A stretch of 64,000 nucleotides of DNA from a bacterium (GTDB lineage Bacteria > Patescibacteriota > Minisyncoccia > Phycocordibacterales > UBA2100), in contig JAEUQT010000001.1 in the NCBI GenBank assembly GCA_016789445.1, positions 1,308-65,307 of the forward strand. The letters are read 5' to 3'. A program made the translations under genes and the position numbers. Below, piece after piece: positions 19,197 to 59,337 of this stretch; within the stretch, counting starts at the first letter, position 1; the number at the start of each line of letters is the position of its first letter. Under the pieces are notes generated by a model. That model was not told the origin of the DNA, ran no database searches, and saw only the letters and a program-made list of their open reading frames with translations.

Positions 19197-19683
19197 AAAC
19201 GGAATCAAAACGAGCTCTTTGCCGAGTCCTTCTCCCGGCAGCGAAAATTGTTTACACAAGATTCTTGAATCGCTCTTTCAGGAGTCGATATCTACGAATC
19301 GTATCGGGTTGCGAAAGAACACGCCCACTGTCTCTCTCTTCTCCTTCAAGTTGTTGAAACGTGAGGTCTGAATATTGGTCCTTTGTAAAATCAATCTGCG
19401 TTCCGTCTGCGAGAGCGTTCCAGTAATGTGAGCGCAAATGCGCATATTTAGATATATGTGCCAGTGAACCGCACATCAACTTACCACCCAAGTATTCCTG
19501 CGCTAAAACAGAAGCAACTGCACAATGTCCCCACAATGGATTGTGTTCTGTCCAATGTTTCGGATCTGCAGATGTGTCGCGCTGCGCGACATTTCTCAGT
19601 ATTCGTGAGAATGTGTCTCGATCGACTGTCATATCTAGCACTAATTAGCTTGATAATATCATTCCTTATCTTCACGGATATTT
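19197..19683. other. Low-GC islet between tRNA-Leu(TAA) and tRNA-Lys, flanked by type-A repeats
   Basis: GC visibly about 45% versus about 60% for flanking DNA. One hypothetical gene (19252-19641). Confidence 0.5.
19252..19641 (-). CDS. Hypothetical protein in a lower-GC islet between tRNA-Leu(TAA) and tRNA-Lys
   Basis: 129-aa ORF. The local GC (~45%) is clearly below the window average. Confidence 0.5.
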   Translation of the reverse strand: MLDMTVDRDTFSRILRNVAQRDTSADPKHWTEHNPLWGHCAVASVLAQEYLGGKLMCGSLAHISKYAHLRSHYWNALADGTQIDFTKDQYSDLTFQQLEGEERDSGRVLSQPDTIRRYRLLKERFKNLV

Positions 19684-56420: not shown

Positions 56421-57440
56421 CTATTCCACACCCATCAGGCGCCCGACAATACCTTCCGCATGCTCTCCGTGCTCCAAAAGCCGCGGCTGGGCGTAATCAT
56501 GGATCTCTGTCGGGTGATAGGTTATGGCGGATACCCCCTCTTTGGTGAATACGATCTTCAGGACGAGGCCGTCACGAGTCTCTTGCGACCACATCTGATC
56601 GAATATGAAATTCCCGAGGCTGTAGAAGATGTATTTACCCTTGTATTCCTCCCGTGTCTGCACGACATGCGGATGATGGCCGATGACGATCTCCGCTCCC
56701 GCATCGATCGCGGCTCGGGCAAACGAGGTCTGCGAGTCATTCGGGAAGAGCTCATATTCCGTACCGGAATGCATGGAGACTATGACGATGTCGGCGAACT
56801 GTTTCGCTCCTTTCACCGCCGTCTGCATACGGTCGATACGCATGAATGCCGTGCCGAGGCGAGTCTCCCCTGCCTCATACGAGGCGGGAACCACGTCGTC
56901 GTCGTTATAGGCAAGGAACGCGAACCGGATACCGTTAACCGTGACGAATTTAGGCTGATGCGCCTGTATATCGGTACCGGCACCGACATGGACGATTCCT
57001 GCATCATCCAGGTAATGCATCGTGTCCTCTAGCCCCGTTTCGCCGAAATTAGGGGTGTGATTATTGGCGAGCGAAAGGACATCGAATCCGGCATCACGCA
57101 GAGCCTCCGCCGATTCGGGGTCGGCACGGAAGGACATCTCGAATGGCTGGACTTCCGGCCCCGGAGTGACGCTCGTCTCGAGATTGCCGAAGGTTATGTC
57201 TGCGGAACGCAGGAATTCGCTTGTACTCGCAAACGGATAGTCATACCCGTACTGCCGCATACGCTTCGCGACCGCGCGCGAGAGCATCATGTCTCCTACG
57301 GCGATCATCGTGACTTCCGCCGGCGGCTCGGGCTTCACATACTCCATCACCCGCACCGGCAATTCCGGTCCGGTTATGGGGGCAATACCAAGGACGAGTC
57401 CGGCAAGGATGAATGGTATGAAGCGGCGCATTCCGCTCAT
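56421..57440 (-). CDS. CapA/PgsA-family metallophosphatase (poly-gamma-glutamate capsule biosynthesis protein-like)
   Basis: Signal anchor, then ...DITFGNLET...DIVIVSMHSGTEY...VIGHHPHV..., which are CapA family motifs. Confidence 0.75.
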   Translation of the reverse strand: MSGMRRFIPFILAGLVLGIAPITGPELPVRVMEYVKPEPPAEVTMIAVGDMMLSRAVAKRMRQYGYDYPFASTSEFLRSADITFGNLETSVTPGPEVQPFEMSFRADPESAEALRDAGFDVLSLANNHTPNFGETGLEDTMHYLDDAGIVHVGAGTDIQAHQPKFVTVNGIRFAFLAYNDDDVVPASYEAGETRLGTAFMRIDRMQTAVKGAKQFADIVIVSMHSGTEYELFPNDSQTSFARAAIDAGAEIVIGHHPHVVQTREEYKGKYIFYSLGNFIFDQMWSQETRDGLVLKIVFTKEGVSAITYHPTEIHDYAQPRLLEHGEHAEGIVGRLMGVE

Positions 57441-57462
57441 TCAAGCATGAAAATTATGTGTG

Positions 57463-57534
57463 TGCTCCCGGCCAGAATCGAACTGACATCAAACCATTAG
57501 GAACGGTTCGTTCTATCCATTGAACTACGGGAGC
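57463..57534 (-). tRNA. tRNA-Arg (anticodon CCT)
   Basis: Reverse complement reads GCTCCCG-TA-GTTCAATGGATAGAAC-G-AACCGTTCCTAATGGTT-TGATG-TCAGTTCGATTCTGG-CCGGGAGC-A. Confidence 0.8.
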
Positions 57535-58180
57535 TGTGCTCCAGCATCTTATCAGCAATCGTTTTAAAGAGGCAATGAACCAGTTTTAACTGGTACGAGC
57601 CTTTCCGTAACGTGATTCGGCACATCCCATATTGGGTATGGCTCTTATTATGTTTATCGTTATGGTTGATACGTATCTGAGATACCGAGACCTCCGCCAC
57701 AGCGGCCCAATGCTTGCGACAGGATTCCGGATTCATAGGTACACACGTCCGTATCATAAAATCAAGATCGGAATTCTTGACACAAAGAAAGTCCCGAAGC
57801 ATTGAAAGGAAGACTTTTATCATGCGCTCATCCGTATTCGTGAAAACAAAGCTGCTTTTGGTACCCTCTGCCCAATATAGTGCCGCATAGAGCGCTGGCC
57901 ATACCGCAGTCGGCTGTATATTTTTCAGTATTAACTGCGCCTCCTCTTCGGCACGTTTCCACTCTCGCATCTTTTCAGCCTTGCTCCCTCCCAAGTACGC
58001 CCGAATTTCTTTTCTAATCTCCGGCGCTAGCTCGACTTCTCTCACGTGATGCCAAACGTTCGTCTTTGACATCTGGTACTTTGCAACTAATTGCGATAGC
58101 GAATGGCCTTTCGCTCGATCCTGCTTAAGTGAGGCAATAGTTTCAGCAGAATACCTACGCATTATTAAATAATAGAACAA
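57497..58180 (-). CDS. Hypothetical protein with N-terminal helix-turn-helix; the remainder is weakly reminiscent of a LAGLIDADG-type fold (speculative)
   Basis: N-terminal SAETIASLKQDRAKGHSLSQLVAKYQMSKTNVWHHVREV is HTH-like. ALYWAEGTKSSFVFTNTDERMIKVFL loosely resembles LAGLIDADG blocks. GC ~45% versus ~60% for the window. The last 38 nt of the ORF overlap the 5' half of tRNA-Arg on the same strand. Confidence 0.45.
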   Translation of the reverse strand: MFYYLIMRRYSAETIASLKQDRAKGHSLSQLVAKYQMSKTNVWHHVREVELAPEIRKEIRAYLGGSKAEKMREWKRAEEEAQLILKNIQPTAVWPALYAALYWAEGTKSSFVFTNTDERMIKVFLSMLRDFLCVKNSDLDFMIRTCVPMNPESCRKHWAAVAEVSVSQIRINHNDKHNKSHTQYGMCRITLRKGSYQLKLVHCLFKTIADKMLEHSSRSSMDRTNRS

Positions 58181-58231
58181 TCGCGTACATGGACGCGTAT
58201 ACTGTTTTTATATGTGTGGATATCTGCCAAA

Positions 58232-58471
58232 TTAGAGGCTAAGAAGTCGGCGCAGCTCTTCTTCGTCGTACCCGACGATGACGTTCTCACCGATCGTGAT
58301 GACCGGCACGCCCATCTGACCGGACTTCTCGATCATCTCTTTGCGCTTCTCGACGTCTGCGGCGACGTTATGCTCGACATACTCGACGTTGTGCTCCTTG
58401 AAGAACTCTTTCGTCATACCACAGAAGTGGCACGTCGGCGTTGAATAGATGGCTACTGGTGAATTGGTCAT
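58232..58471 (-). CDS. Glutaredoxin-like protein (NrdH/Grx family)
   Basis: 79 aa with a redox CPxC motif (TCHFC) in IYSTPTCHFCGMTKEFF and a thioredoxin fold. Confidence 0.75.
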   Translation of the reverse strand: MTNSPVAIYSTPTCHFCGMTKEFFKEHNVEYVEHNVAADVEKRKEMIEKSGQMGVPVITIGENVIVGYDEEELRRLLSL

Positions 58472-58533
58472 AGAGTCATGCGCTTTACTTTTTAAAGTCG
58501 GATTATTATAGCATTTCAGTTATCCCCAGCCAT

Positions 58534-59124
58534 TTATTCGGACTTCCGAACAATTTTAGCGACCCGGTTACCGAGATGCCGCTCTCGCATCCTTTCCCCC
58601 GTATTCGCATCAGCATAGGTTCGAGTATCGAACGTCATAAAACCTATTTTAGGGACATGCGAGACAGGAATCGTGAATTCGGTCGCATCTCCGGATAGAA
58701 AAGCCAGATATATTGTTCCCTTTGTTTCTTTAATCTCCTTATTGGTCTCGATCTTCCTGCCGGTACCGTCAACGATATATACCTTTTTGCCGTCCTTGCG
58801 AGGATTCTGGACATATTCGAGCAACCTCTCGGTATATATCGCCTCGTTGTCACCTAGTCGATCAAATAAATGCTTCGGCGCATGCGCTTTGAACCAGGTG
58901 TAGTCAGGTACATATACAAGTGCCGATTGGGCATCATATTCTTTCCCCTCCACTTTCTTGTAGCGCTGAGTAGTCCCGTCCGGTAGGTAGCGATATACGG
59001 AACCTTTTACGGTCTCTACCGATGCGATATCATCGAACCCCAAGACCTCGCCCTGTGGTACTTTTTCAGGCTGGCGTTCCTGTTGAGACCTCTCGGCAAC
59101 GATTCTTCGAGGGAAGCTCTCCAT
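58534..59124 (-). CDS. Hypothetical protein (low-GC islet)
   Basis: 196-aa ORF, GC ~47%. Confidence 0.45.
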   Translation of the reverse strand: MESFPRRIVAERSQQERQPEKVPQGEVLGFDDIASVETVKGSVYRYLPDGTTQRYKKVEGKEYDAQSALVYVPDYTWFKAHAPKHLFDRLGDNEAIYTERLLEYVQNPRKDGKKVYIVDGTGRKIETNKEIKETKGTIYLAFLSGDATEFTIPVSHVPKIGFMTFDTRTYADANTGERMRERHLGNRVAKIVRKSE

Positions 59125-59165
59125 TCCGAAAGTATATCCTGAGACCGAAACCCAATCTATTCGGG

Positions 59166-59236
59166 TGCGGGATACGAGAATCGAACTCGTATCTACTGCT
59201 TGGGAAGCAGTCGTTCTACCACTAAACTAATCCCGC
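59166..59236 (-). tRNA. tRNA-Gly (anticodon CCC)
   Basis: Reverse complement reads GCGGGAT-TA-GTTTAGTGGTAGAAC-G-ACTGCTTCCCAAGCAGT-AGAT-ACGAGTTCGATTCTCGT-ATCCCGC-A. Confidence 0.85.
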
Positions 59237-59337
59237 GTTCCTATCGTGCGAATACATCCTGACAACGGCACCCGGCCCTGCTCTCATATCATCCGCCGAA
59301 ACTAATCCCGTTTCGCGCCAACTATAGCAAAGCGGAT

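Follow-up and report, generated by a model that had tools for sequence, protein, structure and literature searches.

A ~770-bp cassette (57462-58231, minus strand) is located in the window, the 64,000-nucleotide stretch of DNA from a member of the Patescibacteriota that was analysed here. It is composed of a conserved 5' region, an open reading frame (ORF) and a complete tRNA-Arg(CCU) gene, and the ORF directly abuts the tRNA. It is highly probable that the ORF and the tRNA form a mobile unit. The ORF encodes a 221-amino-acid (aa) protein with a helix-turn-helix (HTH) domain and a LAGLIDADG-like domain. In the favoured explanation, held with rather better than even confidence, the ORF is homing-endonuclease-like and free-standing and spreads along with a linked tRNA allele, like SegB of phage T4.

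The cassette and its overlap with tRNA-Arg

The features of the cassette and its downstream edge are as follows.

57462-57534, minus strand: tRNA-Arg(CCT), the 3' module of the cassette, allele "type A" (ARAGORN; Rfam, 62.3 bits)
57497-58180, minus strand: ORF of 227 codons from a mechanical TTG start (ORF list)
57497-58162, minus strand: gene for the 221-aa HTH and LAGLIDADG-like protein, with ATG at 58162-58160
57539-57901, minus strand: C-terminal LAGLIDADG-like domain, residues 94-214
58043-58147, minus strand: N-terminal three-helix HTH, residues 12-46 (227-codon numbering), in an AlphaFold2 (AF2) model
58163-58231, minus strand: conserved 5' region of the cassette, homologous across 13 ORF-bearing loci
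57432-57461, minus strand: 30 nt from the tRNA-Arg 3' end to the return of homology with the cassette-free locus L180

The ATG at 58162-58160 is the likely start of the ORF and is also the gene call in seven other assemblies. The coding sequence has no stop codon of its own and uses the first in-frame stop in the tRNA. In the window, this is the TAA at 57499-57497, which occupies tRNA-Arg positions 36-38 and comprises anticodon nucleotide U36 together with A37 and A38. The final 12 sense codons are positions 1-35 of the tRNA and include acceptor, D-arm and anticodon-stem sequence. The intact ORF/tRNA junction is common to seven independent assemblies (99.9% identical), so the overlap is not an assembly artefact. 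The ratio of nonsynonymous to synonymous substitution rates (dN/dS) of the ORF is 0.06-0.17, and it is thus a working gene. The original prediction, made from the letters of the window, had described three genes between two tRNA genes, a 227-codon protein with an HTH and a possible LAGLIDADG-like region, and an ORF whose end and stop codon lie inside tRNA-Arg(CCT) on the same strand; these points stand, and the assembly error that it had considered as an alternative is answered by the seven assemblies.

Replacement of the resident tRNA-Arg allele

Two loci without the ORF, L178 and L180 (loci compared with the window are given by number), were retrieved by lookup of the exact glutaredoxin-like (Grx) protein encoded upstream of the cassette, and their Grx is 100% identical to that of the window. 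L180 is arranged as tRNA-Gly, Grx, a 45-bp spacer, tRNA-Arg and PGA_cap, and contains neither the ORF nor the 196-aa gene that lies between tRNA-Gly and Grx in the window. The window and L180 are homologous up to the Grx stop codon (58232) and again from codon 4 of PGA_cap (57431) onward; between these points, ~800 bp of the window stand in place of 116 bp in L180. In L180, the PGA_cap ATG directly follows tRNA-Arg. Together with seven related species that do not have the ORF, L178 and L180 reveal a presence/absence polymorphism at one precise site.

Sixteen of the 73 positions of tRNA-Arg, every one of them in a stem, differ between the window and the empty-site allele (type C) of L178 and L180, against 91-95% identity in the flanks and a tRNA-Phe that the window shares unchanged with L178. 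Distant genomes that lack the ORF have the empty-site type. The extent of the exchanged tract is also visible among three ORF-bearing loci, L087, L088 and L089, where DNA identity is 62-78% in Grx, 83-98% from ~50 nt before the ORF through the whole of tRNA-Arg, and ~30% right after the tRNA-Arg 3' end. These comparisons indicate that the cassette replaces the resident tRNA-Arg allele with its own complete copy.

The left end of the cassette is its 5' region. Loci of different hosts that carry the ORF are homologous over the 70-80 nt that precede the start codon, with the consensus GTGTCCATGGACG..TGTACTATAAT-N6-7-ATG in 13 loci. These nucleotides are absent from the empty alleles, where homology to L180 and L178 stops at the Grx stop codon. 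A CCACA..GAAC motif is found in this region (CCACA at ~58219-58213 in the window), along with the palindrome CGCGTCCATGTACGCG at 58197-58182 (consensus GTGTCCATGGACG) and a -10-like TATTAT at 58174-58169, 6 nt before the ATG. Across loci, the latter is TATAAT, 6-7 nt before ATG or GTG. The cassette palindrome GTCCATGGAC was flagged as a terminator-like hairpin. A candidate tRNA promoter inside the 3' end of the ORF (TTGCCT-17-TAAGAT) was dropped; the consensus scan did not flag it, and its nucleotide invariance in 4 loci did not hold across 46 loci.

An integrated element at tRNA-Arg that reconstitutes the 5' part of its target had been proposed for this interval. The element is mobile and supplies tRNA sequence, as proposed, but what it carries is a complete tRNA, as seen from the 16 differences and from the L087/L088/L089 tract that runs to the tRNA 3' end. 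It is extremely improbable that site-specific recombination at tRNA-Arg integrated a three-gene islet and regenerated the 5' part of the tRNA. The low GC content across the whole 1.6-kb interval, the placement between two tRNA genes and the ORF/tRNA overlap are in favor of such an event, but the three genes have three separate presence/absence patterns, and the L178 and L180 alleles refute a common insertion. Moreover, Grx is syntenic backbone, the whole tRNA is carried by the cassette, and the boundaries have no integrase, direct repeats or tRNA fragments.

The searches behind this last point covered several signatures. No recombinase or integrase was found at 57.4-59.3 kb in the ORF list or by Pfam, no att-type direct repeats by repeat finding, and no tRNA-Arg fragment of at least 12 nt elsewhere in the window by blastn-short of both tRNAs. 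Local alignment of the tRNA of each locus to the region upstream of its ORF, with shuffles, gave a significant score at 1 of 44 loci (median z 0). The displaced tRNA-Arg fragment anticipated at the distal boundary is thus missing from the window and from the 44 related loci. An integrase-type tRNA-targeted island was rejected because there is no recombinase and there are no attL/attR repeats. Rfam and intron models, even at E <=1, returned no group I intron or other structured RNA; a group I intron in the tRNA gene was rejected because tRNA-Arg is uninterrupted and no intron model matches.

The same tRNA gene has a different kind of neighbor in L178 (L178:748-1700; logan SRR6488412_365). Here, a second copy of the tRNA-Arg 3' end GATTCCTGCCGAGGGCA lies ~190 bp downstream and is followed by a GC-rich 220-aa gene that is unrelated to the ORF family. 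The repeat resembles an att-type duplication, such as an integrase-style insertion distinct from the cassette would leave at this tRNA.

Horizontal spread of the ORF

The synonymous divergence (dS) of the ORF is 0.30-0.41 in the L087/L088/L089 pairs, whereas that of lepA, DivIC and Grx is at least 1.8 or saturated. The ORF values were reproduced from an independent codon alignment. An ORF dS of 0.3-0.4 beside saturated flanking genes argues for recent transfer and not loss. The phylogeny of the ORF is incongruent with that of the host. L005 and L089 are 80/49/73% identical in lepA/DivIC/Grx and only 48% identical in the ORF; L001 and L089 are 84% identical in the ORF and 75% in lepA. The host markers of the window are closest to those of L004 and L091 (86/61/74%), and its ORF is closer to L089 and L001 (67-69%) than to L004 and L091 (63%). 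In 23 of 25 loci, the GC content of the ORF is below that of the rest of the locus, by a mean of 7.6 points, in hosts of 34-58% GC. The identity tract, the dS values, the phylogenetic incongruence and the tRNA swap are the marks of horizontal spread with co-conversion of flanking markers.

A vertically inherited accessory gene that is often lost, with the tRNA differences and the incongruence caused by rate variation and by recombination hot spots at tRNA genes, is a very unlikely account of these data. It would be consistent with the mosaic nature of tRNA alleles at this locus in general (20 of the 73 tRNA-Gly positions are not shared by the window and L180), with recombination between ORF and tRNA types, and with an ORF GC content that partly tracks that of the host. 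It does not explain the low dS of the ORF beside saturated flanks, nor an identity step that starts ~50 nt before the ORF, in the 5' region, and ends at the tRNA 3' end. The tie of the superfamily to tRNA 5' boundaries in unrelated genomes and in phages, described below, is a further point against it.

A family tied to the 5' ends of tRNA genes

A total of 80 metagenomic loci were collected with a family alignment. The close relatives with enough downstream sequence (~55) all lie -5 to +29 nt from tRNA-Arg(CCT), upstream and on the same strand. Of 46 unique loci, 34 have the stop codon inside the tRNA, including 14 with TAA at position 36 and 13 with TAG at position 8, and the other 12 have it <=14 nt upstream of the tRNA. 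More distant relatives abut tRNA-Gln(TTG), tRNA-Arg(GCG), tRNA-Lys(CTT) and tRNA-Ser(CGA).

Two loci have another arrangement. In the distant family members at L155:5418-6220 and L156:2671-3440, the closest tRNA is Arg(GCG), and its predicted strand is opposite to that of the ORF. The 3' end of the ORF would then lie over the 3' end of the tRNA; either the 5'-abutting rule has an exception here, or the strand was miscalled.

The family is large. The close homologs form 71 clusters, all unnamed, and a profile search of 1.84 billion representatives gave 2,915 clusters (at 50% identity) at E <=1e-3, 891 of them at <=1e-10. Another 20 relatives (L181-L200) are found on IMG/VR viral contigs of 12-527 kb, most of them >55 kb. 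These viral relatives are always within tRNA arrays, often a few nt from the next tRNA (such as Cys, His, Leu or Val), and some are bracketed by tRNAs, such as L199, with the order tRNA-Met, ORF, tRNA-His. The 446-kb contig IMGVR_UViG_3300036715_004471 has two copies. These contigs, viral according to IMG/VR, may be true huge phages or misbinned DNA of the candidate phyla radiation (CPR). The ORF is thus a member of a large unannotated family located beside tRNA genes in CPR bacteria and large phages.

The HTH and LAGLIDADG-like protein

The N-terminal HTH is of the homeodomain, resolvase or transposase type, with Pfam matches in 34-38 of the 71 family members, and also matches the Sleeping Beauty and Tc3/Hin-type HTH. 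The C-terminal domain contains the motif LYWAEGTK, in which Glu105 (codon 57868-57866) and Gly106 are invariant in the subfamily, as is the W. Across the superfamily, the Glu is >=90% conserved and the Gly is invariant. A LAGLIDADG helix, located at the dimer or domain interface, ends in a conserved acidic residue (Asp or Glu) followed by Gly, and LYWAEGTK has this ending. The LYWAEGxK motif aligns to LYVAEGDK, the second LAGLIDADG motif of I-DmoI, and the aligned Glu presumably corresponds to the I-DmoI catalytic residue E117. When the superfamily C-domain profile was compared with PDB sequences, I-DmoI chains made up 7 of 8 matches at marginal E values of 0.09-0.18, and the aligned stretch pairs LYWaEGsK...FtNsD with IKGLYVAEGDK...RIWNKN of I-DmoI. 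The full-length structure search was swamped by two-domain noise, and a domain-only model was used instead.

Profile databases do not assign the C-terminal domain. Its 125 residues have no Pfam, NCBIfam or PHROG model, and Pfam LAGLIDADG models matched neither the protein of the window, nor 23 and 71 family members, nor 10 isolated C-domains at E up to 10. A homolog search seeded with an I-DmoI fragment gave no match.

WhiA is a Gram-positive core gene product with two degenerate LAGLIDADG domains and a C-terminal HTH, and it is not known to have the catalytic acid. By analogy, the 221-aa protein might be a domesticated LAGLIDADG-derived regulator that binds its own palindrome or the tRNA gene and controls tRNA-Arg(CCU) transcription without cutting, with the cassette spread only by ordinary recombination or natural transformation. 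This is rather unlikely, but it is the most serious alternative to a homing endonuclease. The strong purifying selection on the ORF, the HTH domain, the conserved palindrome beside the -10 box upstream of the gene and the probable reliance of the tRNA on the cassette promoter are as expected of a regulator. A regulator would not be expected to be polymorphic among near-identical backgrounds and rare among related species, with a host-incongruent phylogeny, a dS far below that of its flanks, sharp tract boundaries and a GC content below that of the host. The Glu-Gly kept at the LAGLIDADG catalytic position also argues for an enzyme, and related genes at many tRNA sites and in phage tRNA arrays are typical of homing endonuclease genes. 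The protein differs from WhiA in having one domain, an N-terminal HTH and an invariant Glu, and in being patchy and mobile. Autoregulation and homing are mutually compatible; the endonuclease I-TevI, as a precedent, acts as a repressor of its own promoter, and the palindrome of the cassette could serve as an autoregulatory operator.

A proposed mechanism of spread

In the homing model, the 221-aa protein would be a homodimeric, site-specific homing endonuclease that cuts tRNA-Arg(CCU) loci without the ORF. This role is suggested by the fold, the invariant Glu-Gly at the catalytic position, the fusion to an HTH and the genetics of the locus. The break would be repaired from an ORF-bearing copy, with the 3' region of Grx as the left-hand homology arm and the tRNA gene as the right-hand arm. 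The exchanged tract would end at the tRNA 3' end because the homology ends there. The 5' region, the ORF and the donor tRNA allele would thereby replace the resident tRNA allele. Presence/absence polymorphism, exchange of the tRNA allele and sharp boundaries of high identity are the observed outcome. Variable conversion tracts could account for the recombination between ORF clades and tRNA types.

Expression of the cassette would be coupled to the tRNA. The spacing TATAAT-N6-7-ATG suggests a leaderless transcript, and since filled alleles have no room for a tRNA promoter of their own, the ORF and the tRNA are probably co-transcribed. RNase P cleavage of this precursor would strip the stop codon from the message and, speculatively, may keep the protein low.

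Several observations weigh against this model. There is no significant LAGLIDADG match in Pfam, NCBIfam or PDB sequences, and hhalign against I-CreI gave a probability of 0.3. The predicted order of secondary structure is alpha-beta-alpha-beta-alpha-beta-beta-alpha, where the canonical order is alpha-beta-beta-alpha-beta-beta-alpha, with a saddle of beta-sheet that binds DNA. Both the nuclease activity and the target site of the 221-aa protein are inferred. The dS comparison could be somewhat affected by the different base composition of the ORF. ORF and tRNA types recombine, as L004 and L091 are sister ORFs with different tRNA types, and a strict linkage between tRNA type and ORF clade was rejected on this ground. 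The D-arm GTTCAATGGATAGAAC is identical in filled and empty alleles and does not account for self-immunity. The acceptor stem has no co-conversion signature, with wobble or mismatch pairs in 22 of 46 filled and 6 of 13 empty alleles. Finally, 13 of 46 ORF-linked tRNAs share the anticodon-loop context of empty alleles.

The anticodon arm of tRNA-Arg is GCCCCGTCCTAAGGGGT. The G32-type context of the anticodon loop is found in 14 of 15 empty and 13 of 46 filled alleles (Fisher 1e-5, with phylogeny ignored), a suggestive association with filled or empty status.

A broader and more tentative idea, possible but doubtful as a whole, is that such loci are tRNA-allele drive cassettes. A LAGLIDADG-derived endonuclease gene, fused to the 5' end of a specific tRNA, would cut the resident allele and install its own cleavage-immune one. 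It would borrow a stop codon inside the tRNA and be expressed from a leaderless ORF-tRNA precursor, such that the parasite could not be silenced without loss of an essential tRNA, and processing by RNase P would yield a message with no stop codon and thereby limit the dosage of the endonuclease. The ~2,900 clusters in CPR bacteria and large phages would then represent one undescribed family with no Pfam model.

Relation to known systems

The tRNA cluster of T4 contains SegB, a free-standing homing endonuclease of the GIY-YIG type (Brok-Volchanskaya et al. 2008, PMC2330249). The site recognised by SegB includes a conserved motif of the tRNA T-arm, and the enzyme drives its own inheritance and that of neighboring tRNA genes, displacing the tRNA-region markers of its rival (PMC2330249). 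The genetic footprint of the cassette matches, in that the ORF and a linked tRNA allele replace the resident allele, and relatives of the ORF sit in phage tRNA arrays. The two differ in fold, which is GIY-YIG in SegB and LAGLIDADG-like in the cassette, and in host, which for the cassette is the chromosome of an uncultured CPR bacterium. SegB has its own stop codon and spacing, whereas the ORF of the cassette is fused to one tRNA and its relatives usually stop inside it. Activity has been demonstrated for SegB and is inferred for the cassette protein.

LAGLIDADG enzymes such as I-DmoI, I-Tsp061I, I-CreI and I-CeuI are encoded in introns or inteins, and enzymes of this superfamily make site-specific, Mg2+-dependent double-strand cuts in long targets (~14-40 bp). 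The cassette gene is in neither and has no ribozyme, and it is inserted at the tRNA 5' boundary and not in the anticodon loop, the usual place of a group I intron in a tRNA gene. Its product has an added N-terminal HTH, does not match the Pfam LAGLIDADG models, and its first beta-hairpin appears to be reduced to one strand. Integrative elements that target tRNA genes share with the cassette the tRNA-gene site, low GC and element-supplied tRNA sequence that keeps the tRNA functional. The cassette differs from them in having no integrase or tRNA direct repeat, in its size of ~770 bp, in its position on the 5' side, and in carrying a complete divergent tRNA where these elements carry a duplicated fragment.

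In Patescibacteria, one report describes tRNA group I introns as mostly without endonuclease genes (PMC13011429), and another describes LAGLIDADG genes in rRNA insertions (PMC11270868). A term search of PMC13011429 and PMC11270868 showed that neither mentions free-standing HTH-LAGLIDADG-like genes next to the 5' ends of tRNAs, and no other description was found in the literature searched, whose coverage did not extend to subscription journals. The cassette probably belongs among the selfish genes of the homing-endonuclease type, as part of a large unannotated family.

If this is true, selfish endonuclease cassettes that turn over essential tRNA genes would explain tRNA allele mosaicism in streamlined CPR genomes far beyond the divergence of the flanks. 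The family rule, in which a particular tRNA has the gene directly at its 5' end, is simple and testable and helps to annotate thousands of hypothetical CPR and phage proteins. Active members would be a natural library of compact endonucleases against conserved tRNA-gene sequences, which is of interest for meganuclease engineering. The overlap of a coding sequence and a tRNA, with the stop codon in the anticodon loop, would be a natural case of translation coupled to tRNA processing.

The glutaredoxin gene and base composition of the interval

The remaining features between the two tRNA genes, and the tRNA at the far boundary, are listed below.

58232-58471, minus strand: glutaredoxin-like gene (Grx), 79 aa (PF00462, 5.8e-19)
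58529-59163, minus strand: separate 635-bp insertion with the 196-aa gene, absent from L180 and present in L178
58534-59124, minus strand: 196-aa hypothetical gene (ORF list)
59164-59236, minus strand: tRNA-Gly(CCC), the backbone boundary (ARAGORN and Rfam)

The three genes between the tRNAs (57535-59163) are all on the minus strand. Grx matches PF00462 (5.8e-19) and TIGR02196, and it is closest to the YruB and NrdH types. Its active site is CHFC (C-H-F-C, a CxxC motif), which corrects an earlier reading of CPxC. Both a lepA-anchored scan of species-representative genomes and the contexts of ORF homologs give the Paceibacteria backbone order lepA, DivIC, (tRNA-Gly), Grx, tRNA-Arg(CCT), tRNA-Phe. 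Most related Paceibacteria have Grx next to tRNA-Arg(CCT), whether the ORF is present or not. In seven genomes (L010, L011, L014, L017, L027, L029 and L030), Grx is followed by tRNA-Arg within 40-100 bp, with no ORF between them. In the lepA-anchored sample, the family hidden Markov model (HMM) found only one further carrier of the ORF, L021. The divergence of Grx tracks that of lepA and DivIC. Gene order and divergence thus indicate that Grx is host backbone and lies outside the mobile element.

An extended -10-like TGCTATAAT at 58505-58513 (minus strand), ~35 nt upstream of the Grx start, is kept in L180 and L178. TGCTATAAT is probably the Grx promoter, and in empty alleles it probably also drives the downstream tRNA-Arg.

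The low GC content of the interval had drawn attention to it. The interior between the tRNAs is indeed lower in GC (47.3%) than the window (56.3%, and not the ~60% first estimated), and no other run of 300-bp windows <50% GC in the 64 kb is as long as 57351-59050. The interval is just one among ~20 patches <50% GC. By gene, the GC content is 45.7% in the ORF, 48.4% in the 196-aa gene and 53.3% in Grx, which is near background. The proposed single islet of three genes does not survive comparison with related loci, as Grx is syntenic backbone and the 196-aa gene, judged by L178 and L180, is an independent insertion. Conservation of the islet genes in relatives had been named as a finding that would refute the islet, and the outcome is divided: Grx is syntenic and leaves the islet, and the ORF is patchy and polymorphic, its position not conserved. 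A low-GC patch between tRNAs need not be one island, as three separate histories meet here.

The 196-aa gene, tRNA-Gly and the second low-GC patch

The 635-bp insertion fills precisely the space that separates the 3' end of tRNA-Gly from the Grx promoter region. In L180, tRNA-Gly is directly followed by TGGGGATAAC and the Grx promoter region, with no 196-aa gene. L178 has the 196-aa gene (98.5% aa identity) and Grx, but no ORF cassette. As the 196-aa gene occurs without the ORF in L178 and both are missing from L180, the two insertions are independent. The 196-aa protein has no family match in Pfam, NCBIfam or PHROG. Its gene homologs form 58 clusters, mostly of ~275 aa, in other contexts (near glycyl-tRNA synthetase (GlyRS) or an M50 peptidase), and the gene in the window may be a shortened, relocated paralog.

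The tRNA-Gly(CCC) of the window (59164-59236) differs from that of L180 (L180:35-107) at 20 of 73 positions, although Grx next to it has 91% DNA identity. Upstream of tRNA-Gly, the two sequences are unrelated. The tRNA alleles at this locus seem to be recombination mosaics more generally. A 12-nt exact copy of tRNA-Gly positions 2-13, CGGGATTAGTTT, is found at 59299-59310 (minus strand), 63 nt upstream of tRNA-Gly on the same strand, with an E value of 0.19 for the window. It may be a 5'-fragment duplication of the kind that the original prediction reported at other tRNAs.

A second low-GC patch between tRNA genes had been pointed out as comparable. It exists and contains a 129-aa ORF (19252-19641, minus strand), which is unrelated to the tRNA-abutting family; tblastn and two HMMs found no paralogs of the cassette ORF in the window, this patch included. 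The 129-aa ORF has a weak PHROG match (phrog_12251, E 0.0015) and lies downstream, not upstream, of both neighboring tRNAs.

The 64-kb window has 13 tRNA genes and the gene order of a small genome, with lepA and MurJ-type neighbors in relatives. Its closest named relatives are Candidatus Kaiserbacteria and Paceibacterota metagenome-assembled genomes.

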